Source: Yuukianura sp. NJ FZ-2021 (Eukaryota). Taken from it: a stretch of DNA of 64,000 bases. Location of the stretch: assembly GCA_046563655.1 (NCBI GenBank), contig CM102288.1, forward strand, positions 4,774,001-4,838,000, given 5' to 3'. Of the stretch, positions 3,001 through 61,916 are shown in pieces. Numbering within the stretch: the first letter of the stretch is position 1; each line of letters begins with the position of its first letter. Position numbers and translations under genes: made by a program. The notes under the pieces were generated by a model. That model worked only from the letters and a program-made list of their open reading frames with translations, was not told the origin of the DNA and did not search any database.

Positions 3001-4305
3001 CCTCAGGTTAATTGGAAAATTTAAATTAGGAATTTGCTTTCGATTTGCATGAAACTGATTGATGAACATGTCCAGAAATGGAATAATCTCGTCATGTGGA
3101 AGACTCTGGATCTGATGACAGTTGACTCCCATCAAGGCTAGACTGGCTAAATCACTTGTAGCATTTCTGGATCGGAGATTCTGGACAGACAGACTATCAC
3201 CTCCCAACAGAGTTTTCAACAGACTTGATAAGAAGTTGGTCGGCAGGAGTCTGACCTTGGCAAGGTTAAGTTCATTCCGACGGGCAGTAAAGTCTGTCAG
3301 AGCTCTCACAAATACTGGCATGTTTTTCTGTAGTATAGGAAGAGGGAAGACGGTCATCAGTTCATCAGGATCGTCTGTTCCAAGTATCATGGTCACTGCA
3401 TTGGGGTCATTGAGTCTCGGAATCAACTTGGCAGCGATGAATGCCTTTTGAGACGGCAGCATTCCAGAAGTCTGGCTCACGAGAGCTTTGAGAACTTGAG
3501 GATTCAAGGGCCTCCCCAGAGCAACACTTATGTTGAATGTTGGAATTCCTTTGATCAATTGTGGCTGGAGAGACAGGACGTAGTCGTGTGGACTGTGGCT
3601 GGGCAGTGTCGGCAAGAAGTCGGCCATTATTTGCCAAATCCGAAACGTACTGAGTGGCTGCGTGTTGACTTGTGACCCGAGATTAATGATTGAGGACATT
3701 TGAAGGGGGGCCCTTGGAGTGCCTGGGTTAACGAAACTGCTTCCGTTTGTAAATCCTGGTGGAAGTGGAGGAGACAATAGTTGAACTGGACTTGGTTGAG
3801 CGCGGAATGAGCCTCCAGGCACTTGAGGACCAAATGGCTGACCTTGCTGGAATCGTTGGTTTTGACCTTGTGGGGACTGTCGAAACGGTCTTTGTTGGAG
3901 CTGTGGTTGCTGACTTTGTCGTGACACTGGAACTTGACCTGGCTGGAATTGCGATGATCCTGGACTTTGTTGGAATGATGGTCGACTTCCTGGTGGAAAC
4001 GAAGTTCCTTGACCTTGCGGACCCTGCGGAAATGTTCCAGACTGGGATGATGGCCCTTGACCTTGTGGAAATGCTGTTGCTGATGGCGGTGGACCAAATT
4101 GTTGACCTTGGATTCGACATATTCCTACGAAAAAAGAAACAAAAGAAATTCAACACCAAACCAACACTACTTTTTTTTTTCATCAAAAATTGACACAATC
4201 AGTGAAATTCTTACCTAAACACAGTGAAAATAAAATCGCTGACTGCAGAATTGGCGTAACCCGCAATGGAGGTTTGTTCGTCCTCCAATTCGGATTGATC
4301 CACAT
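1..4305 (-). CDS. Stereocilin/otoancorin/mesothelin-superfamily secreted protein with Pro/Gln-rich inserts; 3' end lies beyond the left edge
   Basis: Manually spliced GT-AG exons 4305-4215, 4124-2895, 2773-1260, 1166-765, 694-373, 259-<1. The N-terminus MWINPNWRTNKPPLRVTPILQSAILFSLCLG|ICRIQG looks like a signal peptide. Repeated family-type motifs: 'LKNVFGPDVSAWKSADLVVIGDLLVAL', 'LIELGNLVTAL', 'FGPPNAWTIEDVNTVGVVVAG'. Confidence 0.7.
1375..1755 (-). repeat. Coding 24-nt tandem repeat, about 16 copies, encoding PPPPQFQQ
   Basis: Unit ggtggtggctgttgaaattgtggt repeated on the + strand with point variants and one 21-nt unit; in frame with ORF 1254..2732. Confidence 0.95.
1840..1935 (-). repeat. 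Exact 45-nt coding duplication (PPGMVQGQMDPRQQQ x2)
   Basis: ggaggttgttgttgtcttggatccatttgaccttgaaccatgcct occurs twice in tandem. Confidence 0.9.
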
Positions 4306-5880: not shown

Positions 5881-7104
5881 TTACATTTTCTTGATGCAAA
5901 TTCCATATGGGCGAATGCTGCTTTCCTTTTCAGTGATCCAATACTCCCCCTGACCTCCAGTGTCTTCTGTAGTTAAAATCCGAATGTCGTCCGGATTCAC
6001 CCTGTTTTGAACCACGGCGATGTAATTTTCACCGTCAAGTTCGAACTTCGAACCATAACGTTCCGCTACAGAGATGTCCGGCGTAGTGTAAATTCCAACG
6101 CGAAACGCAAATCGTTTTCCCTTGCCGAGTAAAAATCCGTCTTCAGCAATGGACTTCATTTCGTGAAGATCTGTTCCGTGGTATGACACTGCAGATCAAA
6201 AGCGGTCAGTTACATCAACAATGACTTACAGTTACAATTACAGTAAATACCAAATACTTGTGTATGTTTATAAACGAAAAAAAAGGACCAACCTGGCCAT
6301 TCTCCTTTCACTGAAGAAATGCCCGATTTTCTTTTTCTACTGCAGCACGCCCCAAGCCAAGCTGTATAAAACATTTTTAAAATCAATACTAATAGAAAAA
6401 AGCGTTGTTTTGTTTTATATTTTGCGAATTCATGGCGTACCGTTACAGTCTTCGTAGCGGTCGAGAACGTTCAAAGCGATGCGGATCCATCCATACGGCC
6501 TGCGATATATAAACTTCCCTCGGAAATACACAGATTCGTCTTCGATGCCTGTAAAATCGTAGTCAAATCGCGAATCTCTGAAATCGGGTGACAAGTACTG
6601 CGTTACTGGACATCCTTCGGGTCTCATTTTCAAAACGAGATGAAGTATCGAGTCCGGTTGAATATTGTAGTGCTTTAAAGGACGCCCATCTTCCAACCGT
6701 TTACCAGCAAACAGGATGAGTCGCTGTTGATCCGCAGGAATTCCTTCTGTGTCTTGTATTTTCGACCGAATGTTCTCAATAGTGTCCATCTTGTTGAAGC
6801 CCAAAGTTATGGTTTTTCCACTCAAAGTCTTTACGTACAGGACTTTACTCCCTCGGAGTACCGAGGTCGCAGCCACTGGCTGTCTCTGGGGCGTGTTGGC
6901 GTTGCTCGGTTCGCAACTAACGTCGTCTTTCATCAGCTGAGTCAAATGTAATGAAAGTAGGTTGACCTCCTTAACGTCACATTCAGTCACGTGAACTACG
7001 CCGTAGTTACGTACGGACAAGGACACAGCCTGTTCTCTACTGGCGGTGATTTCTACTTTAGTTATTGCAGACAACGCAGCAGCCAACAGGTCATCAGACG
7101 CCAT
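5881..7104 (-). CDS. Ubiquitin-like domain fused to a NEURL4/Gig2-type ADP-ribosyltransferase (ARTD-like) domain
   Basis: Exons 7104(start may lie further upstream)-6441, 6361-6293, 6188-5881 join in frame. Ub domain: [12 protein letters not shown]...[27 protein letters not shown]...LHLVL. It is followed by [56 protein letters not shown]. Confidence 0.8.
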
Positions 7105-8085
7105 TGTCGAGCTGCGGTTTTCACGCAGTAGCTCAGTAGCTGCAATGCTGTCGCTGTGCACTTTGGTACTGTATCGGGTCTTCTGGAAGGATTCTGGAAA
7201 ATGAAGGAATGAAACGTTTACCATGTTGTTAAAGAAATACGACTAAACTTCCATGCATAACTTAATATTTCAAATTCTTAAAAATTAATCGAGAAGTACT
7301 CACATGTTCTACTTGACGATTGAGTATATTAATTACTAATTGGTCCTTGTCAAGGTCGTCGTCTCCTTCCCCGTTCGCTTTTTGGACAAAAGACAAAACG
7401 TGCTTAATATGTAACGTTTTCACAATGTTTTCTCTTTGTTTATCTTAACTACTTGACTTAAGGATTAGCCCGAACAGTGTGCCCACTCTCGCCGTTGTGT
7501 GTGGCCGGCCACATAGGCGGCTACCGCTAAATGTCGACGTATAAAACCACTATTAGATAAACTTGTCTAACCTACCACAACATGGCATAATAAGTTGTCG
7601 TACAGTGCAGCCTTTAACTGCTGTAAAAGTAAAATCGATTGTTGTAGCCGCAATTGCTCCTCCAGCACTGCTGGACCAGCAGCATTGTAAGACTACAATG
7701 GTAGTCGTTAAACCTTACTCTAACCTAAAAGTGTGTTCCTATCCTTTGTTTGGTGCATGGATTTCATATGCTCGCGCGGAAACAAAACGAATCTCACAAT
7801 GCCCCGAAACACTGCAAGATCTATGAACTTAAATGTATTTCAGTAAATTTTTGTGCCAATTTATTTACTATTTGCAAATTTTGAACGCTTATGGAGTTAA
7901 CCGACGCGTATGAAGTTCCTACGGATGTATACACGACATTCCGTATAAAATGAAAGCATTTTTAATTGAAAAATTAATTTAACTTAAAGTCAAATTTAAT
8001 AACAATTAATTTGTGTTCCTAATTTTAAAAAAGATAGCTCGCGATGGGTATTAGTTCAACAATTAGCCAAATTTAAAGGGTGAGT

Positions 8086-9854
8086 TCAACTTTTGGACAC
8101 AAATGTTCCATGAACCCCTTGAGGAATGTGGCAGTTGACATAGCCACGCCCAATTTCGGTCATTGACTTTGCGTCAAGAATCAGCAGAAAGTCTTTGCCT
8201 GCGTCAACACTTCCGTCAGTCACAACGGCACTTAGCAAAACACCATCATCTTCCGCAGTTCCATTAGGATTTGGCACAAAAACCGCCTCTCCAACATAAT
8301 ACGAGTTTGATTTCCGCCATGTCTTGACCTTTGTCGTCGTTTCTCCCCGAGTGTCAATCTTTGCTATACTGTTTCTCCAAATACCATTGGTCACTGATCC
8401 AGTACAGTAGAAATAGCGATACTGTTTGGCCAAGAACTGTCTGTTGATTGTCGGCAAGTCCAGACCAGGAAGACTCAGAATTTGCGGAGTCAGAACAATT
8501 TTTGAGCCTAACTTGACTGCTTTAGCAGAAGTTTTTACATCCGATATCAAGTTGACTTCCGTTGTTACATCCAGGTCACTGGTGACCCCCAGGGGAATGA
8601 CGAAGCGTTCGGCTTGTGGAAGGTCATCTTCTCGAAACGTTCCTCTGCGCAGATTGTCCACTGTCATGCTCTGGAGAACGGATGGATTTGGACTTGTAAA
8701 GAGGTCAATCACAATGTGACCGTTGACCTCAAAGGCATTGATGACATGCAGGAAGAAAAATGGAGTCACGGAGATGAAGTTCGTCTTGATCAGTTTCCCG
8801 CTCGATTTTTCAATTATGAGGAAGTTATTGGTCAAGTCGGGTCGCCAGTCGAGCCAATCAGAAATGGACTTGTTCTTGGTCAGGGCTCCACCCAGGACGC
8901 GTGACACGACGTACACGTACGGTTGCTCAATAATGACAATGTAGTTCTTGGTCATCGCAAAACTGTGATTGAAACTCATCAGTCCGTTCCAACTTTAACA
9001 AAAAATTGGAAAAATTATCAAAAACTACAAAATCAAAAACACAATCTCCAGATTTTGTTTCAAAATATACCTGGATGGCACTGAAGCTATAATTTTAGAA
9101 TTTTTGAAAGTGTTCATAGCTGAGTCGGTGGCTGCCACAGTAATCGGTGGAGTTCGGATAACGTTATACTTAAGTCCAGTCATGATTGAAGGACCGACGT
9201 TGTATGTCACCCCGTCGTCATCTGTCAACGGATGACATGTCATGGAGTTTAGGCCAAACAGTTTGAAACTGTCAAATTTTTCAGTAGTTTCCAAACTCTC
9301 CAAATCTATCGTCCGAAAATGACAAGTTTCATGAGAAGCAAACAATTTAGATCCCAATTGATATGCCGCCAAATTGCAATTGTCAGTGAGTGGTGGTACC
9401 TGTTTAAAAAAAAACAATCAAAATTTCTAAATTTTTCAACAAACTTAAAATTTCAAATTTTCTTGAAATTGTGATTTTCACTTACAATGTTTGGCATTAT
9501 TCGCGAAAAGAATCCGCGCCCCGGATCGGGAAATCCGCGTGTGCCGAATTCACAAACGGTTGGACGACCGCTCAACTCCGCTTTTGCCTTAGCGTCACTT
9601 TTGAGCAACTTTTTATGAAAAGTGATCTGCGTCGGCGTTATGTCAAACCTGCTGAGAACTGCGTATCCATCAAAGATGTGTTTCATCTGGAACGTGTTTC
9701 CGGTGACCCCGAGGTCAAAGACTCCTGGCCCTGACCTTACAAATGACCCCTCCAGCCATCCTGGAATGGATCCTTCAACTTCCGTGACCTCTGGTTGGTC
9801 CAATTCTTCAGTGGTCCTGAAGACACGAGCCAAAGGGAACTTGGAATCTCGCAT
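8086..9854 (-). CDS. Carotenoid cleavage oxygenase (NinaB/BCO/RPE65 family), copy 1
   Basis: Exons 9854-9486, 9399-9071, 8992-8086. Motifs GSIPGWLEGSFVRSGPG, HIFDG, EFGT...PDP and EDDGVLLS. Four Fe-binding His in TCHP, FNHSF, FLHVINAFE, GVHGTF. Confidence 0.92.
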
Positions 9855-10180
9855 GTTACCGATCTTATGCAACTTTTAACAAGAACTGATGGACTCATGG
9901 CATTACCACTCTCATTTTCTGTCTCGATCTTCAAGGATGCCCGGTTTTGGCTTAAGCACAAATTAGCACGACCTTCTTGGAAGTTGATTGAGAGTTCATA
10001 CATTCAAGATCGTCGCAGTTAGCAACTTGTTTTTTGTTTGCTTCTGAATTTGATCTTCCTACGTCAAGTCAGGCCATGGACAACATCTCTACACCCCAAA
10101 ATCCTCAAACGAATTCAAATTAACAAGAAGTGGGATTCCTATGTGACTTCACTCGAATCTTTGGCAAAAAAATTAAATCT

Positions 10181-11326: not shown

Positions 11327-12238
11327 TCACAAATCGCAAATACATGGAACAGGAAATACAGTCAAGTATAAAACTCTGATAAAAGTCAGTCCGAGAATCA
11401 CTTTTTGCCACATTTTGCGTCTTTTGCGCGGTTGATAACGCAGGATTGTTGCGTCCATGGAGCGTAATCGGTAGAGCGGGAATCTTGAAATCACGTAGCG
11501 ATCTTCCACGACTTCGTATTCTGATGCCGGATCTTTACTGATGTCATATGACACCAGAATGCCCAGAGCCGCTAACAAAAACGGTGGCCAAAACCAGTGT
11601 CGCTTGTGTGGGAACAGGAATGACAGGACGCATGCGACGATACAGTTTTTGTAAATGAGTCGATGGACAAAGTTGGCCACAATCATGTATCGATGTAGTC
11701 TGCGTCCCATTTGCGCAGGTTCACACACGACATACGTCGTTTCCTGTTCCATCGCGACACAAATTGACGTCCATTCTTCCACTTTGTCATTCAGTTCACT
11801 CTCTTCGATAATCAGAATTCGTTCGTCAGTGTATGTCCAGAGTGACATCTCATAAAGATCATGTATCCCTGTTCGTGGCCACTCACATTCATGCACTCCA
11901 TCGCGCCGACGCGTAGTATCTCGTTTTCCTAGAGCTCGAAATGCGTCGTCCTTGACATAGGCATAGCCTTCGGGCAGTACTGGATAAATGGCGTTTGGAG
12001 GTCGATGAAGCCAAGAATCCGTCACATGATCCCCGATTTGGTTATGTCGACGGCCACTTTGGAAATAAGATTTGGCGAATCGCTGAATTTGTAAAGTACG
12101 GACTTGTTGGTAGAGCGGGAGGTCGAGAGAGTGATGCAGCCCTGTTGCCGAAGCATGCGTGTAGCCTCCGTGGCCATAAGCACTGTAACTGTTGAAATCA
12201 AAACTGCGCTGCTGCCGCTGTTGTGTCGAGTCGTCCAT
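11327..12238 (-). CDS. Divergent intronless TMEM11/PMI-like mitochondrial membrane protein with long N-terminal extension
   Basis: The C-terminal ~170 aa align by eye with TMEM11: [32 protein letters not shown] ~ [55 protein letters not shown] ~ DPCCKYQVEYDAYKLSRLPLHTL. Three hydrophobic segments; single ORF, first ATG at 12238. Confidence 0.7.
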   Translation of the reverse strand: [303 protein letters not shown]

Positions 12239-12862
12239 GATTGGTTTTCTTGTCACATTTCGGAAAAAAAGCAATAACTTGAGAAAAAACGAAGGCGGTT
12301 GTTTGAATTGATATTGAAGTTTGACAAAAACAAAAAATGGTAAACAATTCCTATGACTTTTTTTTCACTGTTCGCTGAACTTCTCCAAAGAAATTGCGGT
12401 TTTGATTTTTTTTTGTTTCGTAATATAAGACAAGATGAGTATCCTTTGGCTCGTGTGTATTCCAGAAGGCGTGGAATTCCATTTCAGAAATAAGGGAGGA
12501 ATTTTTTATTTGGTTACGTTTTGGAAAGAGACGTGGTGGAATTGTTTCTGTGTCCATCAAAAGACTCTTGTTCGGTCAAGTGAAAGTTCAATCCAGGAAA
12601 AATTCCAAAGGAATTTTACTTTCTGGACACTTTTAGTGATTTGTTTTCTCGAATTGTACGGTGAACCACACCCACTGACATTTCCGGATGCCTGTTCCTT
12701 GTCTTACGTTATGTTAAGTTAAAAAAACCTTACTTTCCTTGTGTTCTTGTTAAGTTAGGTTAAAAACATAACTTTCTATGTATTTTTTTAAGTTCAAAAC
12801 GTAACCTTCATGTGCATAGGATAATAGGATGCCTAATGAGCGCCCACAACTGATCTCTGCTC

Positions 12863-15080: not shown

Positions 15081-17392
15081 CTACAGCATGCTTTCACTTC
15101 TGTGTCCCGGTACGTAGGAGCAAATGATTTTCTTCGTCAACGCTCTCGGATTGAGTACTTTTGACCCGTCTGCAGCCGGCCTCCTCTTGTGACACTTCCC
15201 CTGACCATGACCTTGACCTTTGCTGTGACCTTGACCTTTGCTGTGACCTTGACCCCTGACCTGCGGTAACAGTGGGGCATGACTTTTTCTCATTCCGTTC
15301 TTCCTCGTCAGTGCCGTAGATGGCTTTGCACTTCCGTTGAGGAGCAAATCGGGCGACGTAGATGGCGACGGTGAGTTGTTGGTGACTTGCGCAGTTGATG
15401 CGTGGATGGTTGCATTGACATTGTTGTTGGTCAGCGACAAAGTGTGAGAAGTTGTGGTCGTAAGTGTGAGGAAAGTTCCGTTTCTGTGAAATATGAACTG
15501 CTTTCTCCTGCGTCCACAGAGTCTGAGAAACCCATTTCTGAACTTGGAGGACATGATGTTGTATAGAATAGGGTTGAGGGCTGAGTTGACATAGGCCATG
15601 ATACGGGCAAAGTAGAGGATGGTGTAGTAGGCTTCCGTGTGTGCCTGCAGAATAGATCCAATGTCAGTCACAAGTACTGCGAGTGTCAATATGCGGAAGG
15701 GAAGTAGACATAAGAAGAAGGTGAAGACGACCGTGCCCAGCATCAGCACAACTTGTCTCCGTCCACGGTTGTTTTCGTTCTTGGCATTGAGAGCTGACCT
15801 GTCCTGGGTCAATCTCTGGGCAATAATGCCATAAGTGACCACCAGAATCAGCAGAGGGATGAGGAAGAAGATGACGATGGAGAAAAGAGTGTAGAAATCT
15901 GGCCAAAACGAACCAGCACCTACGATACACTTGGGCTCCAGAGCACCGCTGTTTGGATTCCGAAACTCGTAGTAGTGCGTCATGAAGAACACGGGACTGA
16001 AAATAAAAAAAATCATCAAAATTTCAATTTTTGAAAAAATTAATTTTGAGTTGTTTTTGAAAATTTGAGAAAAAGTGGTGAAAGTAGGGAAAGTTCAGTT
16101 TCTTGGGAGAAGATTAAACAATATTGACATCCGCAATGCTTTCACTCCTCACAGCATGGTGGGAACCAATCAATTTCCAGAGCTTCTTTGTTCTCACTTC
16201 AGGTTTAAGTTAAGTTGTTTAAAAAACTGCTGTTTTGGAACTTTTTTAAAGTGTGTTTTGGACATGTTGATGTTTACCTTGTAATGATGCACGCCAGGAT
16301 CCAGACAATGACACAAATGTAGACTGCTCTGGCCTTTGTACAGACGTAATTGGCTTGCAATGGGGAGCAAATGGCGTAGTAACGCTCAAAGCTAATGGCG
16401 AGGATCGTGAGCACCGAAGCGTGACACACCGTCAACTCCAACACAGGAACCAAGTAACCTGCAAGGTTAAAGGTCAAAGGTCAGTTTCAGTTACAACTAG
16501 GCCAACATGGTACCGTTCACCTTAATCAAGGTCAAAGGTCAATCTAAGCTCTCCAATTCAAGAAAACGACCTATTTTCAACAGGTATGGCATAGGGTTTC
16601 GGTTTTTCATAAGAAAGTTGAACGACGTCAAGATTTGCAATTTTCAACTGACAACTGAAACTGGAATTTTACATTTCAAAAGAAAATGAAAAACCAGAAA
16701 TAAGTTAGTAAAACGTAGTTTTTCAAAACTTTTTTTTTCTGAAATTGTAACGTAAACTGCATTTTAATAGAAATCTAACAAAGTTACATAATCTCTTTCA
16801 GCAAAAAGTAAATCAAATTGCACCAGAAATGGAAGAATTCGGAGAAAGTTAGGAAAAATGTAAATTATATTTGAAAAGAGTAGCTTAAAGCCCTTAAAAA
16901 GCTGGAACGTGTGAAGCACTTGAACTTCAGGACGTGACCTTCAGGCGATTTGAGAGTTATGGGACACTTAAGGGCACCCGACGCCTTCTGCGCTCTTCCA
17001 AATTTTTGTTGGTGATTAAACTTACAGAGTGTTGGTCCTAGCATCCATATTTCCGGGTGATAAATGACTTCGAGCAGAGCCGTTGGTGTGACGAGCACAA
17101 GAACGAGGAGGTCAGCCACGCTGAGGTTGACCAGAAAAAAGTTGGTTGAAGTGCGCATGTCTCTGGAGCAACTGATGACCAGAGCTATCATGGTGTTCCC
17201 CACTGTGCCCACTGCCAGTATCGTCACAATGAAGATACACACTGTGATTCGGATGTACATCGGCAGGTCTTCTGGATACGGCTCCACAATGCCAGTTCCG
17301 TTGTGCAAAACGTAGAGACCGAGGTTGGCGTCAATGTGAATCTCAAGGTCGTCTGCCCGACTGGAACCGAGTTCAGAAATGGTCGAATTCAT
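15081..17392 (-). CDS. ETHR: Ecdysis-triggering hormone receptor-like class A GPCR
   Basis: Exons 17392-17026, 16458-16278, 15996-15081. Seven TM segments with GN, DMRTSTNFFLVNLSVADLLVL, ELTVCHASVLTILAISFERYYAIC.PLQANYVCTKARA, RQVVLMLGTVV..FFLCLLPFR, NSALNPILYNIMSSKFR, typical of arthropod ETH receptors. Confidence 0.85.
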
Positions 17393-18420
17393 TTTCTGCG
17401 ATTTCAAATTCTGAAAAAATATCAAAAAAGGACTCAAATTCTCCAATTCCGAGAATCTCACGACTGAACTGAACTGAAATCTCTTGACTTTCTGAATTCT
17501 CTGAAACACGTGAAAAGAATATTTTTGAATAAACTTTCTCTTTTCTCTCTCGTTGGTTTACAAAGTAAAATGGGGATTGTGCAACAGGTTTCGTTGAAAA
17601 TCTGGCAGATCAAATGATTATAATTTCAATTGAATCTCATTTGAACCTCACAACTCGTGCCGTCTAGAACAAACAGAAGTTAGTTCCATTATTTTTAGGA
17701 AAGAACTTTCTGAGAACACTGTTCAGATCCACGTTTCTTCCAAGAATCGTGCCTTTTACACTGTAGAAAATCAGCAAATTGTCATTCCTCAATGCCCAAA
17801 AATGGGCTAAAACTTTCTCCAACTTTCTCCATTGTCACATCCTCTTCCTCCACTTCCCTCATTGTTCAACGTCACCCAGTCCATAACAAATTATAAACTT
17901 CAAAATTAGTTCCGAAAAAGTTTAATTTTCAATTTCAAAATTTGAAAGTTCCTGTCTGATCAGAACGGAGGACCTTATGATGAAAAGGAGCTCAGGAACT
18001 GATCAGAATTGTTCGTCTTGTCTTTTAATCCCTCATGCATGAGTTCCCACTCACTTTCTCCCAGGGGAAGAGTGAGTCTGTAAAGTCTGTGGATTAGTTA
18101 AGGATCCGTCGAAGGATGAAGAGTGAAAGTAGTATGTGGATTCATTGATTCCGTTGAGGTAGGTCTATTGAGTTGGAAAATTGAATATGCTGTTGTAGGA
18201 GGAGGCTTAAGGACAATTTGGGTAGAGAACATCATCTCGTCTGCTTTCTTATTCCTTGGAAAACCTTATTCTCATTTAACTTTAGCAGTTCATTCAATTC
18301 CACTTTCTATTTACAGAAAGAGATTCCACATATGACTTTTCCTTGAAGAAAAAACTTAATCAGAAATGATGCCAGAGATCAAAAGATACCAAATGTGGAA
18401 CTCTTTTGAAAACACACATT

Positions 18421-44211: not shown

Positions 44212-47200
44212 ATGGAAAATTCTCAGGCAGAACACTGTGAGGATGGAGACGGGCAGGTAAGTTTAGCACAGTTTTCAGTTTAAAATTTTTAAAAAGCACA
44301 GGTTTTTAGCTTTTAGTGACTAATTTGTTAGGTTTTAACGAATTAAAAGGAAAAAGCTTAGAGTTTTGTAAATGTGAGGGTAGAAGTGAGGTGAAAGTAA
44401 AAAGGAAATGCGATGCGTCGAAATGTGACAGCGGAAGTAGCGTTACCGCGTAAATTGAAAGAGGCGTCTCTCAAGGTAAATCGATCAGAGTAATCCTAGC
44501 CCCAAAATTATGAAATTTTCAATTAATTGTAAGGATTTAATTAATTTGTAAAGATTATACGTCCTATTAAGCCCTCCCCAAGTTTGATGGCGTGAATTAA
44601 TAACATTTGACATAAGTTTACTTTGGTTTAGGTCCAGGATTGTTTGGACAAGGCTGGTATCAAGCATAATGAATTGGATGCGGTGCAGCAAGTACTTGCT
44701 AACTTGACCGAGTCAAAGGTCAAGGTCACCCGAGACGAGTGGATGGAGAAAGTCATCTTCCTGGAATTCAGAAGATGGCATATCATGTTCTTTGCAGCAG
44801 CCATCATCATGACAATCGGTAACTCTACTTTCTTTAGATGCTTTTACAATTATTAATTGCAATTTGCAAAAATCTTTAGTTGCCATTTTTTTTTGTTTCA
44901 AAAAGTGATTCTGCTGTGCTGCTGTTTCAAATTTCGGATTCCAAGGACAAAACAAGAGATTGAAGGAGATCATATTCGACGAAAGATTTTGCGAAAATTT
45001 CGCAGAAAACTGAAAACAATTCAGAACCAAGAATTGGATGACATGGACCTTAAGAGAGGTTAGCAGAGCACTAAAATCATAAATAACGTTTGAAATTTGC
45101 GAATTTGAATTTTGGCAATAAGAATTTCTGCAACATAACACTATAGCTTAAAAATTATGAAAGTGGTGAAACTAGAAAAAAAAAAGAATGAGAATTCAAT
45201 ACTTTGACTAATTCGAAACTTCATTCGGCATTTAAGCATGAAAAATTTCAAATTTCTTGAATCTGATAGCTGCTAAATGAAATCTAAAAATTAGAAAGTG
45301 CTGTCCTAATTATTTTAGAAAGTTTACACTTGACTTGAAGGAGAGACAGGAGGTCAATAAAAATAACGCCAAAGAATGTTTTGTGGACATGGCAACGACT
45401 GAGAATTGAGAATTTACAACTACGTAATCATGAAAAACCCGAACGGGTGGATTCCTTACGATTGAAATTTTGCACAACTCAGCCTATAACTCGCGAATCA
45501 CTGCGTTAAATTTCAAATTTGAGAACCATTTGCGGTTTTTCTAAAACTGTCAGACGAAGTGGGTGAGCCATTTCTTAGTCTCAATTCTCAGGGTGCCCCA
45601 ACTCTTGGTGACGTAATACGAAATTGTAAATTGTAAACAAGAAATTCGTCAACTCTGACCCAATCTTCAGGTGCATTTCCTGTAAGATTGGTTAGGCGCT
45701 CAAAAAACTACGACCACACTTTTCGCATTAGCATACGCTGCTCCACAGCTTGAGCATCTCCTTTTTGACGAATCTTCAACCGTTTTGCCATGCCTAGGCA
45801 AAGAAGGCAAAAATCCGAGGATTTCTGGAACGTCTTCCAGGAAACCTATGTTTTGTGGACGAAGGGTGCTGTTTTCGCCCGATAGGTTATGCTCAAGCTG
45901 TGGAGCAGCGTATGCTAATGCGAAAAGTGTGGTCGTAGTTTTTTGAGCGCCTAACCAATCATAAAGGAGATGCACCTGAAGTCTTATGGGAAATTGCGTA
46001 TAAGTGAATCTGTCCATCGTAATCTGAAGCAAGGTAGATGGTAGAAGTTAGAAAGAGTGCGACCTTTGTTGTTTACTTCTCTTATCAGCTGTAAACATTT
46101 GAGATTTGAGTGGAGTTTGGACTTTGACAGATTCAAATTTCATAAAATATTGAATGTAAGTTTGCTAAAAAAAAACACAGCCACTGTGTGACCTCTCGTG
46201 ACCTCCGTGCAATGGCCCTCAAGGGGGTGAAGGTAATTGAATTGGCTGGATTGGCTCCAGGCCCATTCTGCGGAATGCTCCTTAGGGATTTCGGTGCTTC
46301 CGTAATCCGAATAGACAAGGTGAGTTTCGCACGCATGGTCGTGAATCGTGATTTAACAGTTGTAAACTAATTAACACCAGCTTACAAATTTCTAAATGAG
46401 TAAAATACTTATTGGTATTAGTTTGGTGGAGGTTTGCCGGATAAACTGGCAAGAGGCAAACGATCAATTGCTGTCAACTTGAAAGATCCAAGAGGTCAGG
46501 ATCTCATTCGACAAATGGCGGCATCCTCAGACGTTTTAATCGAACCATATCGTCCAGGTTAGCTAATCTCTACTTCAACTGCCTTAGTAATTACTTCAGA
46601 TAACTAATTATTCAGTGTATTCAGTTTGTGTTGTTTTGTGTTTGAAGGCGTGATGGAGAGAGTTGGTCTTGGACCAAGTGACCTTATGACTCAGAATCCA
46701 AGACTCATCTATGCCAGACTGTCTGGATACGGACAGACGGGTCCATACTCACAAGCTGCCGGTCACGACATCAACTATCTTGCAATTTCAGGTGACATTA
46801 AACATTAAAATACATGCTAATCAATCACTGTGTAATTTTCAAGTAGATTCTCTGAATCTTCACTCTGTTTAGGAATTCTCTCAAAACTGGGACGGACAAA
46901 CGAACTTCCAACACATCCGCTCAATTTGGTTGCTGATTTTGCTGGTGGTGGACTCACTTGTGCCTTTGGAATTCTGCTCAGCTTATTTGAAAGACACACT
47001 TCCGGAAAAGGACAGGTCACAATTAGATCTGTGCTTAATCGTTTTATGGTTTAATCTGACTTCCTTTGATTTCTTAGATTGTGGATACTTCCATGACTGA
47101 AGGTGCTGCTTACATAAGTTCCTTCATTTTCAAAACCCAAGAACTCCCCATCTGGGGCAAACCACGGGGCCAAAACTTGTAAGATCGTCAATACTTTGAA

Positions 47201-48774
47201 AACTAACTGAAGTACTGAGCAACTTGTTCTAGATTGGATACTGGTGCTCCTTTCTATGACACGTATGAAACGAAAGATGGAAAGTACATGGCAGTTGGAG
47301 CACTGGAACCACAGTTTTATGCCAAGGTTGCTCCACATTCGAATATTTTCTATTTCAGTTTAATTTTTGTTTTAAATTTTGATTCTGTAGCTTATGGAAG
47401 GACTGAAGCTAGAAATTCCGCAGTTCTCTGATGCTGGGAAATCACGGGAGAAAATCAAAACGCAGTTTCTGTCCAAGACACAGGACGAGTGGGTAGCAGT
47501 GTTCGAGAAACTGGACGCATGTGTGACGCCTGTTCTAGAATTGGATCAAGCACAAAATGACAAACACAACGCTGCCAGGGGATCCTTCGTCCCGAATCCT
47601 CTGACTGAGCAGTATGAACCTCGTCCAGCACCGCTCCTGTCCAGAACTCCTGGTGAAGTGGCGTTGTCCCCTTCCGAACTACTGCCAGGAGAACATACAA
47701 AGGAAATTCTAGAAGAGCTGGGTTATGGCCCAGTTGATGTAGACAAATTTGTTACAGACGGAGTTGTACAAGTGACGAATAAATGAATTTTCAGTTCAAA
47801 ATTTCCAGTATTCTTGTCACACTAAAATGTTTTTTTCGTCTACACAATCATCTTCATCGGCATGCAAAAATGACTGATCGCCAAACTGAAACTGAAAAGT
47901 TTTTTTTTGTTATTTGCAGCTCTGGACAAAATTCGAGAGGAGTTTAAGTCTGACGTAGAAAGCGTAGTTCCAGCCGACACTGCGCCGTTGCAAGATGGAG
48001 TCGCTGGGCCGACTCCAAGTCCTCCACGACACGTCGCTGAAGCCACACGGAAAATGTCCTCTTCTACCTACAGAAGAGCTTCTCAAATTGACATTGGTGA
48101 GCACTCGCCGAAAAAAATTTACTATGAAACTTACTAAAAAAATATTTGCGAGTTTCGAATTTTCAATTTTTGCATTTTCAGAAATCTCCCTGGATGACAT
48201 GCGGGCACAAACACAAGGTTTTGGCGGACGCGTTCGTCATGGCTTCTCAAAGCTATTTCAACGCAGAGTGCATCAAACGGAGCCTCCAGAACGTGAATTA
48301 GTGGAAGAAAAAGACGCTAAGAAAACTCTAACAACATCGTCAAAGCCGCTTACCGCAAGCACTGCAGCTTCATCAGGAACCAAAACAACACAAGATCCAG
48401 CATCTTCTGGCGGAGTCAAATCAAAGGAGAAGAAGATTCCATCAGAGAAAGCAAAAGAAAACAAACCACTGACAGAAGTGGAGCCGAAGAAAACGAAAAA
48501 TAAGCCACTGACCTCTGCTGCCACCACTACTGTGACCCTGGAAAATGAAAAAGTGACCAAGAAAAAGCATTCCAAGCCACCAGCAGCCACAGCCACCAAG
48601 AAACAAACAACGCCGAAAGCCAAAGATCCACCACAACCTTCGCAGACTGAAAAGTCAAAAGAAGTCAAATTACAAAAACAAAAGGAAAAGAGTGGAGCAG
48701 AGAAAGTGGAGAAGGCAAAAGAGAAAGTCAGCAAACCGGATAAGCCTGTCTCCAGCACACCAAAACAAAAATAG
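44212..48774 (+). CDS. TMIE: TMIE (transmembrane inner ear) homologue with long Lys/Thr-rich tail
   Basis: Exons 44212-44256, 44632-44818, 44906-45058, 47920-48096, 48182-48774 join in frame. TM segment [22 protein letters not shown] is followed by the TMIE signature [19 protein letters not shown], continuing [14 protein letters not shown]. Confidence 0.8.
45390..45598. mobile_element. Small MITE-like element with short imperfect TIRs
   Basis: ggcaacgactgagaattgaga ... tctcaattctcagggtgccc, with a 13-bp perfect inverted core ctgagaattgaga/tctcaattctcag. Confidence 0.45.
45665..45981. mobile_element. Fold-back/MITE element with ~92-bp near-perfect terminal inverted repeats
   Basis: cttcaggtgcatttcctgtaagattggttaggcgctcaaaaaactacgaccacacttttcgcattagcatacgctgctccacagcttgagcat is matched by its reverse complement at about 45889-45981, with only about 3 mismatches, all near the outer end; spacer ~130 bp. 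Confidence 0.9.
46212..47786 (+). CDS. AMACR: Alpha-methylacyl-CoA racemase (CoA-transferase family III)
   Basis: Exons 46212-46319, 46422-46557, 46648-46791, 46873-47015, 47078-47178, 47233-47326, 47391-47786. Motifs [86 protein letters not shown]. Confidence 0.95.
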
Positions 48775-48794
48775 TAGTAAGGAGATTTTCAAAA

Positions 48795-48910
48795 GCGGCG
48801 ACAGTGTCGCTACAAATAAGTAACGACAGTGTCGTTACAAATTTGTGTTAAAAAAGCTTAAGACAAAAACAGTAGTAAGAAGTTTTAAAAAGTAGCGACA
48901 GTGTCGCTAC
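48795..48910. repeat. Three 19-bp palindromes GTAGCGACA-G-TGTCGCTAC just after the TMIE stop codon
   Basis: 48795-48813 gcggcgacagtgtcgctac; 48820-48838 gtaacgacagtgtcgttac; 48892-48910 gtagcgacagtgtcgctac. Confidence 0.9.
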
Positions 48911-50452
48911 AACTTTGTCTTCGAAAGCGTAAGTTGACCTTGACGCAATTAACTTTAAAACTATTACTTAAACATCAATTTTGTAAATTCTTTTTATTAT
49001 TCCGCCCGTTCCTTGTTATTTTTTTCGTATTTATAATACTTTGTAATTCGCATTTATTATTATTTGTTATTTAGTTCGATGATGAATGTCTGACTCTGCG
49101 AATAGCGCCTGACAGAGGAGAGGATGTTAAAACTGTTAAGGGCTAACAATCAATTAATCAATTATTAATTGTTAATTAAAGTTAACACCTTAGGAGGTCA
49201 AGGAAAGGGAGGAAACGTGACCTCTAACCTCGAGTGACCCTGTTCGGAACGGATTGAGATTGTCATGAAATACTCTTAAAGTCTAAGTCCGACAGAGGTC
49301 AAGAAGGTCAATTAAACCTAGGAAACAGGAGTTACTTTTTAATTTACGCTTGACTACTACACTTTGACCCCAAACGCTATTAACTTTGTAGCTACAATTA
49401 GTAAACAGTCGTGATTGCAATTAACTAATTAAAATCTAGTTAAACCTTCTCTATAATTTTCAGTTCACTCGTCCAGAGGTAGAAGAGGTCTTTTTCCAAA
49501 ACACCGAAAAACCATCGAACCAACAAAACCTCAACTGAACATGAGCCTCGTAATTACTTGTAATTAAATTATAATTACAACTAAATCATGATTACAATTA
49601 AATCATAGTTATAATTAGGCCTAAACCTAAAATTGTGCGATTCTTAAAATATGTCAATGTTACGGACCTCCCAATTCTCAGAATTTACAGAACTCTGTTC
49701 CAATTGATTAAAAAGCTTGGATAGGGAAACGGGGAAGGAGATAACTAATTAATTAGTAATGAGTTAATTAGAATTAAGTTTAATTAAGAATTGGTCATTT
49801 ACCATAACTCGTATAGGCTTCAAGATTTGAATTTAAATAAAATAGTATTATTGCAATTTATCAAATTGAAGGGAGGGATGAGGAAATTAGCCTTAAGAGT
49901 TTAAATTGTGAAGCAACTTGGAAATTAAAATCACAATTAATCTCCACTACGTTTTTTTTAGCAGTTTTGTTCCTAATTAATCAATTGATTTCGACTCAAT
50001 CAAGTGTTTGGCTGGCAGTGAGTTTCATAACAATTAACTTTAATTCTAAATTGTAATTAAGTATTTACTCTTTCTCAGAAAGATGCGAAAAAGGATGAAA
50101 TGTGGCTTGATGGCCTTGGATTCTGAAGAGGATGAGGTCTCTGAGCATCAGTTTGAACTTAAATCTTAACTTTTAATTACAACGTTAGCACGGGAGGGCA
50201 AAGGTCAAGTGTGGTCAAAGGTCAACAGAGCACCCTGAAACTGTTGGAACGGAATGTATCAAGAATTGGAAGGGTAGTGGATGGACATACGAAAACTGTT
50301 CTTTGTAAATCTTCGGTTGCAGTAAGGATTACGGTTAGCATTGTACCCATGGCACAAATTTGACGTGGGAAGTCCGAAAAACCCTCAAGTTATGGTAGGC
50401 CAGATTTATACAGTATTCACAGGAGGTACCAATAATGGTACCCCCATGTTTG

Positions 50453-51670: not shown

Positions 51671-52957
51671 TTAGCTCCTGGAGTGAGAATGACTGTGACT
51701 TGCAGAGTGACTGTGGCTGTGATGACTACTTGTGGAACAGTGTGGATTGTTCTGGGCAGCGGAAGAAGACGTCGACACAGGAGTTCCTGGGAACAGACAT
51801 CCGTTTAGTGTACAAATCAATTTCCTGGAACCGGCCGAGTCCCGATGTTCACACAGCCAAATCCCTTGCCACGTTCCGAGGTTCAGCTTCCCGTCACTAA
51901 TTGGTATTCTGAAAATAAAGAACACAAATAATCGTTAGCTTCGTAGTAATCAATCAACCACGCAAACTAAAAATGAACCAAACAAAACTAGGGAAAGAGT
52001 GACAAGTTTTGTGCCAAACGTACGACAATGATGAGCCAAGGAGACATGCCTTGACGTGAGCCGGCTGCAACCAAAATACGCCAGTTCTTAATTAAAGTTT
52101 ACAATCATAATTACAATTAACGAAATCCTACCATGTCATCCGGACCTTCACAACTGTGTTTGTAAGGCAGTCCCTGAGGAATAGAAAAAAACACGCACAG
52201 TAATTAGACGTAAACAAGTTTCAATCATGTCAAAGGGCAGTTTGAATCGATTCTAAGCAATTACCTCAGGCACTAATTTATCAAGCATCATGTTCATATC
52301 AACTCTGACCTGGAAATAATAAAATGAACGATATAAATTGGCGACACACGAGAAAATATTTAGTTCTAACTTTTTGTTTACTTACGTCTGGGTCCCAGCT
52401 TTCATTCTTTCATAAATAAAGACAAAGATTAATTAATTGAACGTATTATGTAAGTTTAAACAGAAACTATCCATTTCCAAATGTTTTGGCGTAGTTTTAT
52501 ACCAAAGTAGTCAAATATTCAACTGTGAAGATCGTTAAACTATTATTTGAGGAGAGTTGCTTACCAAAGCTAAGCTGGCCGATGTATGTAGTACTAAAAT
52601 GCATAAATCAAGAGATCCATAAATATTTAGACTGGATTTTGGGGGAATTGGAGTGAAAAGAGCGGAAACGAGCTGTGTATGCTTAATTATTAATTGGACC
52701 TTGTAATACTTACTTTGTAAATGGAAGATACCGACGGTAAAGTTACAGAGTTCTGGAACCTGTCGTAAAATTTCCTCAGTGACCAGGTGGACACCTAGAG
52801 TAAACATCATTTCTTATTATACTTTAATATCCACTTATAATTTAAATCTCAATTAAGTTAACTTTCAACTAGTCTGACCTCTGTGTTGTGGCCGGAGGTT
52901 GACCTTTTTCTGGAACCAAGCATTCCCTACTTGGATTCCTCGGCTCGACGAAGCCAT
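51671..52957 (-). CDS. UPF0047/YjbQ family protein, 8 exons
   Basis: Exons 52957-52879, 52794-52714, 52593-52565, 52406-52386, 52309-52265, 52173-52132, 52064-52024, 51908-51671 give ...[20 protein letters not shown]...[16 protein letters not shown]...[15 protein letters not shown], the YjbQ signature. Confidence 0.92.
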
Positions 52958-53858
52958 ATCACAAACTGTTTGTCTTGAATTGGATCAATCAGTGATCGAT
53001 TACAATCACAGGAGGGCCGCAACAGTCACTGTCCAATCGATCAATGGCAGGACAGGACAGGACTGTCCAACTTCTTTATCTGTGTCCACTGTCCGTCCAC
53101 TGTCCGTGTCCACCCAGCTGATCCTGCTCCAATTTGGACTTCTCACCAAGATCAAAAATGTCACATGATCACTTTCCACAAGCACCAATCATGAGAAAAG
53201 CAGAAACAGTTAATTCCGTTGAAGCTTAATTTAATTAATTACTGTTCACAATTAGCAGTTCTTGGAGTGAAGAGGCCCTTATGGTTAGTGAACACCTTCT
53301 GCCAGCAGAACAGTAGAGCGACCTTGAGCAATTGGGACACTGGAGTGACTAGAGGGCCCTTCACCTCCATGTTCTTTGTCCATGGGGCCTAGAGTTGTCC
53401 ATGCCTGAGGTGACTGACCTCTGCATGAAAGTGGGTCGGGAGGTCAGAGGGCACAGTGGCGTGTGTCCGTTTGTGTTGTTGAAGGAGTGATTCTTGTGAA
53501 TATTGAATGTCTGTCTGTGGGGGATGTGGTGAAAGTGGACAGGAGAAAGCAGGGAAAGTGGAGTTTCACTCCTCTCGTCCCTCTGCACACGGGCAATTTA
53601 GCCTTCGACTTCCAGTCGTTTTCTTCCGGGACAGTCTTTGGTCTAAACGTACTTTCTCTGGGCACAAGATGCCGCTGGAAGGTGGGCCACTGCCACGGTG
53701 GTGCCACGGACTCCGTGGAAACCAACGAGGCCAAACAAACAAAAATGTTTGGAGAAAGTCATCCTATGCATGGATTTCCAAATGTAAGAGTTCACTTTCT
53801 TTGATTTGCATAACATTTTTTCATAAGTGTTCTCCAATTGCATCTATTTCGGTCTAGA

Positions 53859-60078: not shown

Positions 60079-61916
60079 ATGCCAGAAAATCAGATTTGCA
60101 AGCTGTTTGAAAATTCGCAAGAAACAGAGCAGCCTCAACACGCCAAAATCGAAGGTTCGGAAAATTAATGTGTATATTTCAAAATTTAAGATGAAAAATG
60201 AAAAACCGAAAATGAAAATTCTCTACTTTCAGGGTCAATACCGGAATGGATTTTTGGAACGTTTTTAAGAACAGGTCCCGCCAAGTGGGACCTAGACAAT
60301 GGCCAATTCAGTTTCAACCACCTCTTGGACGGATTTGCAATGATCTCAAAATTTGTGATTGACAGTTCTGTTCAAACAGTCACTTTAGAAAAGAAGTTTT
60401 TAAATTCCGATGCTTACTCGCGTGCAATCGCTGCAAAACGACCCGTCGTCACGGAATTCGGAACTCCGAGTTGCCCCGATCCAAACCGATCTTGGTTTTC
60501 TAAAATTCTATCAGCATTTCTCCCGATTGAACTCTCAGATAATAACTCAAGTGCTCTCTTTCGTCTCGGATCAGAAGTATTTACAACTTCGGAGACTTGT
60601 TTCTTCAGGTCACTTGACCCTGTGACCTTGACCTCTACTGAGAAACATGACACGAACAAATGCTTTGGAGTCAACATTGACTCTGGTCATCCTTTGACCG
60701 ATGACGACGGAACTACTTGGAACATGGGCTCGACTTTTCTCATGGGACTCAAGTACAACTTGTACAAAATTCCAGCGCAGAGTTCCTGCGCATGCGCAGC
60801 TCAGTCGGCCAAAGAGTTAATGAAAACGTCAAAAATTGTTGCTACGATTCCATCAAGCTGGAACGGCCTCATGAGCTACAACCACCAAAGTTTCATTCTG
60901 ACTACCAACTATGTAGTTTTTATTGAGCAGGTAACGCAGTTAACCTAACAAAAATAACCTAATTGAAATTAAAGTTAACCTAACAAACTTTTCTGTTCTT
61001 TTGCAGCCTTTTGTTATGAATATTGGAAAAGCAGCGAAATCGATTCTGCGAGGCTCTCCAACATTTTCGCAGTATGTCGAGTGGAGACCGGAACTCAGAA
61101 ACCGATTTTTCGTAATCGAAAAAGAATCGGGAAAAATTTTGAAAAATGAAATCTACGCCGCTGAATCTTTTTTCTTCCTACACTACATCAATGCCTACGA
61201 GGAGAACAATCAGGTTACAAAACACTGACGGGTTACGCGTCTAAGCACTCTACACTTTAACATAACCTTAATAAAATAAAACTAACATTTTCTGTTTTCA
61301 GATAGTCCTTGACCTCATCAGTTACAAAAATGCGGACTTATTTGATGACATGTACATGGACAAGTTGAGGTCAGGAAATATTGCAGAGGTCAACTCAGGG
61401 TCAGCCCATCGCTACGTCATTCCCCTTGGGGAGATTGATACAATGGACGAAAACAGGAACTTGGTGGAGGTGAAGAGTGAGGCAAAAGTGGTCCGCAGTG
61501 GGTCAACTCTCATCGTTTATCCAGAAGTGCTGACTTTTCCAGGAATCGAGTATCCAGTACTAAACAAATCACGAGCTGGAAGGAAGTACAAGTACTTCTA
61601 CGGCACTGGAACTCTAGGGAACTCCCCTTACACAAATTCCATTACTAAGTTTGACCTCTCTGCCAAAATCGGGGGGTCGCTTAGCTGGACTGGAACGGAG
61701 ACGCAGTATCCAGGTGAACCGCAACTGTTGCCAAACCCTGCTGGAAGAGCAGAAGATGATGCTGTGCTGATTTCGGCAGTAACTGACGTGGGGTCAAATG
61801 TCAATGACTTTTTGGTTTTTCTGGACGCGAGGTCAATGACCGAAATCGGACGAGCTAATTTTTCCCACAAACTGCCACAAGCACTGCACGGCCTCTTCTT
61901 ACCAGCAGATGCTTAA
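60079..61916 (+). CDS. Carotenoid cleavage oxygenase (NinaB/BCO/RPE65 family), copy 2
   Basis: Exons 60079-60154, 60233-60930, 61007-61213, 61302-61916. Motifs GSIPEWIFGTFLRTGP, HLLDG, VTEFGT..PDP, EDDAVLIS; His ligands SGHP, YNHQSF, FLHYINAYE, ALHGLF. Confidence 0.92.

Follow-up and report, generated by a model that had tools for sequence, protein, structure and literature searches.

Evidence for a complete AMACR gene nested on the same strand within an intron of TMIE in Yuukianura sp.

Analysis of a 64,000-nt stretch of DNA from Yuukianura sp. NJ FZ-2021 (assembly GCA_046563655.1, contig CM102288.1, positions 4,774,001 to 4,838,000; hereafter the window) indicated that a complete AMACR gene almost certainly lies on the same strand inside an intron of TMIE, with its entire coding sequence between two consecutive TMIE coding exons. 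TMIE is a partner of the touch and hearing channel in worms and mice, and AMACR is a racemase of lipid metabolism. The same order, codanin-1, TMIE 5′ exons, AMACR and TMIE 3′ exons, was found on an independent contig from a distant species (locus L012).

Gene models of the host and the nested gene

The features of the locus, in window coordinates, are as follows.

44212-44256, + strand: TMIE coding exon 1, with the ATG at 44212; a 45-nt first exon is also found in L012
44632-44818, + strand: TMIE exon 2, in which the transmembrane helix begins (PF16038 positions 1-25, a weak match; tblastn with O. cincta TMIE P0001)
44906-45058, + strand: TMIE exon 3, covering the end of the helix with the CCC and FRIPR region and followed by a phase-1 donor at 45059 (PF16038; 96% identical to L012)
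45059-47919, + strand: phase-1 host intron of 2,861 nt at an ancient position (same position in loci L001, L005-L008 and L011-L013)
45356-45361, + strand: AATAAA 298 nt past the host donor, a weak lead that might serve a short TMIE mRNA as poly(A) signal
45665-45981, no strand assigned: MITE- or foldback-like inverted repeat, present in the window only, whose 108-nt arms are 92% complementary
46084-46092, + strand: E-box word 128 nt upstream of the AMACR ATG, a candidate promoter element that does not exceed chance
46212-46319, + strand: AMACR exon 1, with its own ATG (Pfam, open frame)
46422-46557, + strand: AMACR exon 2 (Pfam, open frame)
46648-46791, + strand: AMACR exon 3, His121 motif (Pfam, alignment)
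46873-47015, + strand: AMACR exon 4, Asp151 motif (Pfam, alignment)
47078-47178, + strand: AMACR exon 5 (no Pfam match alone; aligned in full-length BLASTP)
47233-47326, + strand: AMACR exon 6 (Pfam; fused to the last exon in L012)
47391-47786, + strand: AMACR exon 7, stop TGA at 47784-47786, protein end ...VTNK without PTS1 (Pfam, alignment)
47778-47783, + strand: AATAAA spelled by the last two AMACR codons, 136 nt upstream of the TMIE acceptor, a candidate poly(A) signal
47920-48096, + strand: TMIE exon 4, the orphan exon of the initial annotation (matching phase 1 after ...ttgcag; first 15 residues 93% identical to L012)
48182-48774, + strand: TMIE exon 5, with a conserved head and a Lys-rich tail, ending in the stop TAG (homologue matches)

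Joining the five TMIE exons gave one open frame of 384 aa on the + strand, with one membrane helix followed in the alignment by a Cys cluster and the FRIPR motif. Its assignment to the family rests on a score of 79.5 bits against a curated PF16038 cut-off of 27, and exon 3 matched model positions 27-76 of 85 with an E-value of 1.6e-22. The initial annotation had predicted a donor after 45058 (border GAG/gttagc) joined in phase 1 to an acceptor at 47920, and these coordinates hold. It had also described the exon at 47920 as lacking a start of its own; indeed, the frame upstream is open only from 47874, with no Met before the conserved block. That this exon belongs to TMIE is supported by homologous proteins that cross the junction: O. 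cincta ODN06047.1 and A. fusca CAG7717590.1 run on into both downstream exons and share with the window the core, the junction peptide and the exon 4 and 5 motifs, and Orchesella TMIE also has the Lys-rich tail. A strict version of the junction motif was present in 31 of the 152 TMIE homologues examined. Exons 4 and 5 comprise 256 open codons in the window and about as many in L012, and their splice sites are in the correct phase.

As first described, all seven AMACR exons fall within the 2.86-kb gap, with their own ATG and stop; they form an open 373-aa frame interrupted by six GT-AG introns of 54-102 nt. The CoA_transf_3 domain (PF02515) was found on six of the seven, and full-length similarity together with placement among animal AMACRs identified the gene. 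Identity over the full length was 62% to F. candida XP_021958754.1 and 61% to O. dallaii CAL8121982.1, springtail proteins that were found by a two-sequence profile search; the last exon alone as query returned no springtail protein (nine matches of 905 candidates). The His121 and Asp151 motifs, which we take to be the catalytic His/Asp pair of AMACR, are kept as in Folsomia and Orchesella. In a quick tree, the AMACRs of the window and L012 clustered with those of Folsomia and Orchesella (SH-aLRT 99). By homology, then, the inner gene is an intact springtail AMACR orthologue, with predicted racemase activity. Horizontal acquisition of AMACR was ruled out by the same quick tree.

The nested AMACRs differ from their springtail relatives at the C-terminus. 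Peroxisomal targeting by PTS1 depends on a C-terminal tripeptide, which is AKL in F. candida and SKL in O. dallaii, whereas both nested copies end in TNK, do not match the PTS1 pattern and are a few residues shorter C-terminally. Among 116 new AMACR homologues, 103 fit a relaxed PTS1 pattern and 65 the strict one. Inspection by eye for a PTS1 reached by stop read-through or a late splice revealed none. Loss of the signal in both nested genes raises the testable idea that nesting altered the enzyme's place of work.

Conservation and origin of the nesting

Both frames are open in L012 (TMIE 371 aa, AMACR 373 aa), and the distance from the AMACR stop to the TMIE acceptor is 121 nt there and 133 nt in the window, close to the 130 bp first given. 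An assembly error could have placed AMACR inside TMIE, and the 317-nt inverted repeat inside the host intron of the window might have favoured one. L012, however, is an independent assembly of a distant species and has the same layout without an inverted repeat (none in L012 3400-7600; no second copy occurs within the window). Because this independently assembled relative shows both the nesting and the upstream neighbour, a misassembly has a negligible probability and is effectively refuted at the sequence level, so that the layout can be regarded as real DNA. Synteny in relatives was among the checks that the initial annotation proposed, and its reading of same-strand nesting is supported, with exon models of both genes on the + strand.

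The two loci are separated by a deep split. Between the window and L012, AMACR was 72% identical with pS 0.75 and dN 0.21, synonymous sites being saturated, and the head of TMIE exon 4 was 93% identical with pS 0.94. As judged from the frames, both genes are intact since that split. According to PMC3814207, selection would tend to remove intron-rich same-strand nesting because of mis-splicing; here such nesting has been kept across a split deep enough for synonymous saturation.

Comparison of introns suggested how the arrangement arose. The inner gene has six introns in the window and five in L012, unlike an intronless retrocopy; all five of L012 are at positions common to the window, and two AMACR intron positions presumably match human AMACR. 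We fetched 13 loci, of which five (L002-L004, L009 and L010) lacked a match to the downstream exon and do not enter the intron count. Both flanking exons were present in the other eight, with AMACR between them only in L012 and absent from seven. The same TMIE intron without AMACR measured 94 nt in L001, 74 nt in L013, about 70 nt in L008 and 65 nt in L011, and about 2.9 kb in L005-L007. L001 and L013 grouped with springtail TMIEs (SH-aLRT 90, quick tree), so that these two springtail-like loci have an empty intron of 74-94 nt in contrast to the AMACR-bearing intron of the window. In O. dallaii, TMIE and AMACR are recorded on contigs of different size (7.9 and 2.1 Mb). Since the host intron occurs at the same position without AMACR in seven loci, the intron-bearing AMACR most likely came later: a DNA-level copy with its introns most likely entered a once-short intron in a forebear common to the window and L012.

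A search of openly accessible articles found AMACR and TMIE together only in human or mouse genetics, as judged from the listings, and gave no report of nested genes in Collembola genomes; database annotations could already show the AMACR/TMIE nesting.

Passage of TMIE transcripts through AMACR

Non-coding conservation between the host introns of the window and L012 did not rise above chance, the score being reached by 110 of 300 shuffles for the 5′ part and 298 of 300 for the 3′ gap; therefore neither a promoter nor a regulatory element is shown. The two species share a 9-nt word, reached by 79 of 300 shuffles, that fits the E-box pattern, and this pattern showed no enrichment (12 matches in the window, where 8.75 were expected, and one in L012, where 0.97 were expected). 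CAGCTG is described as a housekeeping motif in PMC8842121. The AATAAA at the end of the AMACR frame occurs at the same place in L012 (6432), with a chance from codon use alone of about 0.11. AMACR thus has a candidate E-box and a candidate AATAAA in both species, neither above chance. Rfam gave no matches in the window or L012.

The explanation that we favour, and consider probable on sequence grounds, is that TMIE and AMACR form overlapping transcription units, with AMACR introns removed pairwise and the AMACR poly(A) site bypassed. AMACR would very likely be transcribed from a promoter of its own, situated in the 5′ portion of the host intron, while its RNA would end at a poly(A) site just past the stop, probably specified by the codon-embedded AATAAA. 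TMIE would be transcribed from an upstream promoter, and its transcripts must, as pointed out at the outset, get past the AMACR 3′ end. The six AMACR introns might be recognised across the intron and removed in pairs as polymerase passes, an inner-first order that we favour slightly in TMIE transcripts. Because AMACR exon 1 has no acceptor and the last exon no donor, the TMIE donor at 45059 and acceptor at 47919 would be the sole unpaired sites, and they would then be joined in cis; cis splicing to exon 4 across the predicted 45058-47920 junction is, like the AMACR promoter, highly likely. Drosophila introns of 60-70 nt are reported to splice fast, and long exon-defined introns to be able to splice faster than short ones (PMC5762160), which leaves the sequence of removal uncertain. 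The host donor matched U1 at six of nine positions, no more strongly than the AMACR donors (five to seven).

The limiting step would be whether the AMACR poly(A) site or the TMIE acceptor, some 130 nt downstream, is used first. Cells that express TMIE, probably sensory ones, would bypass the poly(A) site, possibly in an ELAV-like manner, as in the ELAV-dependent bypass reported at Drosophila ewg and nrg (PMC8055025). There, distal-exon splicing in neurons requires that an internal poly(A) site be passed, as proposed for TMIE, but the site lies in the same gene, whereas at TMIE it belongs to a different one. On this analogy the participation of ELAV is conceivable though rather doubtful, and it is weakened because the gap between AMACR and TMIE exon 4 is much less U-rich in L012 (30% T, one run) than in the window (38% T, three runs). 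Without bypass, a shorter RNA would encode a 129-aa TMIE that keeps the membrane core. Retention of the host intron ends the protein with ...KRG and a stop after 129 aa in the window; the initial annotation had noted this immediate stop, but it is not conserved, L012 reading five residues further.

In the initial annotation, by contrast, the 12 internal AMACR splice sites and the poly(A) signal all had to be skipped by TMIE splicing, which was taken to imply either mutually exclusive tissue expression or regulated read-through. This requirement is not established, as six self-contained short introns could be removed pairwise. Masking all 12 sites and the poly(A) site so that the 2.86-kb intron leaves in one step would need the silencing of six short introns with ordinary signals, and no conserved silencer appeared in the intron stretches compared between the window and L012. 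Nested pairs in Drosophila are reported to diverge in expression (PMC5174743, PMC3814207), which would suit such exclusivity, and among the ten acceptors of the locus in the window that of the host has the most U-rich tract (14 of 16 pyrimidines); this advantage is missing in L012 (10 of 16), and we regard direct skipping as unlikely.

Far less probable is a split gene, in which the TMIE 5′ transcript would end in the intron, at the AATAAA at 45356 or the AMACR site, and be joined by trans-splicing to AMACR-promoter read-through RNA that extends through exons 4 and 5. Insect mod(mdg4) and lola are trans-spliced, and read-through AMACR RNA with its own introns removed would bear an unpaired acceptor. 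A poly(A)-type hexamer does lie 250-300 nt past the host donor in both species (ATTAAA at 247 nt in L012), but such hexamers are common in AT-rich DNA, and the donor and acceptor lie in collinear order, separated by 2.1-2.9 kb, a spacing at which this intron is by all appearances cis-spliced in L005-L007. If trans-splicing did occur, the promoter of a metabolic gene would supply the tail of a mechanosensory channel subunit. In a milder version of this improbable reading, a regulated switch at the codon-embedded poly(A) signal would set how much short and long TMIE is made, and the insertion would also have deprived AMACR of its peroxisomal signal. It is still more improbable that the short TMIE ending in the intron is the functional form and that exons 4 and 5 are a relic or AMACR 3′ UTR. 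The short form would keep the part of TMIE that has been modelled in the structure of worm TMC-2 (residues 15-62 of 117; PMC10895266); against this, exons 4 and 5 are open, phase-correct and conserved at the protein level with synonymous sites saturated, and the immediate stop on retention is not shared.

A point against the preferred overlapping units is that in-frame chimeric splices are possible in both species, from the TMIE donor to AMACR exon 3 or 4 and into TMIE exon 4 from the donor of AMACR exon 2 or 3. A conserved full-length in-frame TMIE-AMACR fusion was rejected, as no suitable acceptor is common to both (none of 66 AG sites in the window; one of 26, pyrimidine-poor, in L012), and no AMACR match occurred among the 152 TMIE homologues examined.

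Comparison with known nested genes

Same-strand nesting is a known class, of which AMACR/TMIE is an intron-rich member rather than a new class of system. In Drosophila, 71.27% of nested genes are reported on the opposite strand and about 29% on the same strand (Lee and Chang 2013, PMC3814207), which supports the initial statement that most nested genes are antisense for that genus; for mammals the bias is described as only slight (PMC11694760). Drosophila same-strand nested genes likewise lie whole within one intron, on the strand of the host. Of these, 72.5% are reported to be single-exon, the median intron number among those with several exons is one (PMC3814207, PMC5174743), and they tend to be young, testis-biased duplicates (PMC3814207; Assis 2016, PMC5174743). 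Nested AMACR, in contrast, is a conserved metabolic enzyme gene with five or six introns; it takes up 55-70% of the intron around it and stops about 130 nt short of the host acceptor. In mammals, nested genes are reported to be able to cause host intron retention, exonization and early polyadenylation, leading to short isoforms (PMC11694760, PMC3192792). Those host/nested pairs mostly involve very long introns, and such a short isoform is only predicted for TMIE.

The locus is compact (<5 kb) and its empty ancestral state is known from springtail-like loci, which makes it suited to minigene and long-read tests of host passage. Nested loci of this kind also trip gene predictors, such that TMIE may be truncated or AMACR dropped.

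Structure and age of the nested arrangement

Exon-by-exon translation of the window bore out the gene anatomy of the initial annotation, a five-exon TMIE gene (384 aa) whose third intron (45059–47919; 2,861 nt, phase 1) holds a seven-exon AMACR gene (373 aa); the six AMACR introns, all GT-AG, are 54–102 nt long. In Pfam comparisons, TMIE exon 3 spanned positions 27–76 of the 85-position TMIE model, and six of the seven AMACR exons matched CoA_transf_3. The joined AMACR was 62% identical to Folsomia AMACR and 61% identical to that of Orchesella; because springtails supply the nearest named relatives of TMIE and AMACR alike, the window is springtail-like.

The exon at 47920 had also been assigned to TMIE, and the TMIE proteins of O. 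cincta (ODN06047.1) and A. fusca (CAG7717590.1) indeed run through the junction, matching window exons 4 and 5. No Met precedes the conserved head of exon 4 in the window or in L012, a distant relative; this exon is therefore translatable only once spliced to an upstream phase-1 donor. A strict junction motif was present in 31 of the 152 TMIE homologues examined, and named homologues among the top matches came from Timema, Rhodnius, Polyplax, Periplaneta, Ranatra and Nezara; many matches ended near the junction and were fragment-like. In the O. dallaii TMIE model the start of exon 4 is missing and the remainder is present. The 24 residues absent relative to O. cincta, directly past the same junction, reflect a possible alternative acceptor or prediction error.

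Synteny in a relative, proposed as a check on the nesting, was found in L012, one of 13 TMIE loci obtained by a metagenome scan. Its gene order and orientation are those of the window (codanin-1, TMIE 5′ exons, AMACR, TMIE 3′ exons) with the TMIE and AMACR frames open, making misassembly very unlikely; judged from these sequences, the nesting is real and old. AMACR is 72% identical between the two (pS 0.75, dN 0.21, with synonymous sites saturated), and TMIE identity is 96% in exon 3, 93% in the exon-4 head and 74% in the exon 4/5 junction region. In L012, TMIE carries an additional intron and AMACR has one intron less; the five AMACR introns of L012 are all at window positions.

Intron comparison covered the eight of 13 loci with both flanking exons, leaving out five with no downstream-exon match. 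A phase-1 intron occupied the identical place in all eight and contained AMACR only in L012; its length was 94 nt in L001, 74 nt in L013, ~65–70 nt in L008 and L011, and ~2.9 kb in L005–L007. Quick trees grouped TMIE of L001 and L013 with springtail TMIEs (SH-aLRT 90) and joined the window and L012 AMACRs to those of Folsomia and Orchesella as one clade (SH-aLRT 99). The O. dallaii TMIE and AMACR proteins are recorded on contigs whose lengths are 7.9 and 2.1 Mb. Because the intron is common to eight loci and empty of AMACR in seven, AMACR appears to be the later arrival, and parsimony suggests that it most likely moved, introns included, into an already existing short TMIE intron. A plain retrocopy origin was rejected, as the nested AMACR bears introns. 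Two F. candida AMACR models differ by one residue precisely at the position of window AMACR intron 4, which hints that this intron predates the move; two further AMACR intron positions presumably match human AMACR. L013 carries an apparent frameshift within TMIE exon 3 (10082–10100), reflecting either a fault in the assembly or a disrupted allele.

Proposed expression of TMIE past AMACR

The 12 internal AMACR splice sites counted initially form six short introns that could be removed pairwise, and the proposal that TMIE splicing must skip them was not established. Were these introns spliced out on emerging, no site lying between the donor and acceptor of TMIE would stay unpaired, as the first AMACR exon lacks an acceptor and the last lacks a donor. 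A Drosophila study describes quick splicing of introns of this length class and reports that long exon-defined introns can splice faster (PMC5762160). Host sites stronger than the inner AMACR sites were not found in both species (window and L012). Predicted mis-splicing of TMIE into the closest AMACR acceptor causes a frameshift in the window and L012, and predicted splicing to AMACR exon 3 or 4 is in frame with loss of 82–130 N-terminal enzyme residues; no acceptor giving a full-length TMIE-AMACR fusion was common to the two. An inverted repeat with 108-nt arms lies in the host intron of the window (45665–45981), not in L012, and could fold in TMIE pre-mRNA.

We infer that the AMACR 3′ end is a harder obstacle to TMIE transcripts than the AMACR splice sites. 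The AMACR stop lies 133 nt from the host acceptor in the window and 121 nt in L012, and in both the last two AMACR codons form the sole AATAAA of that neighbourhood, which codon use alone yields with a chance of ~0.11. Cleavage here would compete with host-acceptor recognition. The closest known solution is the ELAV-driven poly(A) site bypass described for Drosophila ewg and nrg (PMC8055025); the stop-to-acceptor gap is U-rich in the window only, not in L012, which counts against this likeness. Were cleavage or retention to prevail, the RNA would encode a 129-aa TMIE (123 aa in L012). Because this short form keeps the membrane helix, Cys cluster and Arg-rich elbow, failure to splice TMIE may be cheap; the helix-to-elbow part is the portion of TMIE resolved in the worm TMC-2 complex (PMC10895266). 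The immediate stop on intron retention noted initially is present in the window but is not conserved, being window-specific relative to L012.

The initial view that most nested genes are antisense fits Drosophila, where same-strand genes form a known class of ~29% (PMC3814207); mammals show only a slight strand bias (PMC11694760). Interference of nested genes with their hosts is documented (PMC3192792; PMC5174743). AMACR-in-TMIE is a further case of same-strand nesting, not a new system; it is intron-rich and long conserved, whereas 72.5% of Drosophila same-strand nested genes are single-exon and the remainder have a median of one intron (PMC3814207). Our literature search found no report of TMIE/AMACR nesting, which is useful as a test case.

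The nested AMACRs end in VTNK (window 47772–47786, L012 6426–6440) and lack a C-terminal PTS1. Among 116 newly found AMACR homologues, a PTS1-like C-terminal tripeptide was present in 103 by a relaxed pattern and 65 by a strict one, both patterns following the PTS1 consensus; Folsomia and Orchesella AMACR are among those that carry it. The His and Asp motifs are retained, and the sequences suggest that the enzyme may be non-peroxisomal in these lineages.

Non-coding conservation and neighbouring genes

The AMACR promoter is expected within the 513–1,153 nt preceding its ATG. TTGTT and CAGCTG words, housekeeping-type motifs in Drosophila (PMC8842121), occur in this putative region in the window and L012; the shared word before AMACR was not above chance, being matched in 79 of 300 shuffles. 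In contrast, DNA upstream of TMIE was clearly conserved (0/300 shuffles).

Non-coding blocks conserved between the window and L012
43775–44164 (L012 2982–3568): at least four short blocks upstream of TMIE
49016–49098 (L012 7659–7741): 3′ of TMIE, 85% over 84 nt
49237–49261 (L012 7871–7895): 3′ of TMIE, 100% over 25 nt

The upstream blocks are likely the TMIE promoter or enhancer. Both 3′ blocks, kept despite saturated synonymous sites, had no Rfam match and are candidates for 3′ UTR or enhancer elements. Directly past the TMIE stop, a short repeat of partly palindromic sequence occurs in three copies (48790–48926).

Other genes and open frames in the window (by Pfam)
1257–4149, minus: higher-GC region with a pair of long open frames, 515 and 420 aa; neither has a Pfam hit at E 0.001
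6433–7242, minus: ubiquitin-like
8089–9875, minus: RPE65/carotenoid-oxygenase family
11330–12364, minus: mitochondrial morphogenesis regulator
15084–17557, minus: rhodopsin-family GPCR
39.5–43.1 kb, plus: codanin-1
51674–52966, minus: UPF0047/YjbQ family, downstream of TMIE
57.0–57.7 kb, plus: MINDY-3/4
60202–61913, plus: RPE65/carotenoid-oxygenase family

Exons matching the UPF0047/YjbQ gene also lie downstream of TMIE in three Periplaneta-like loci (L005 8921–9097, L006 8981–9157 and L007 16434–16610), in the opposite orientation relative to TMIE from that in the window, which suggests that the linkage of the two genes is old in hexapods.
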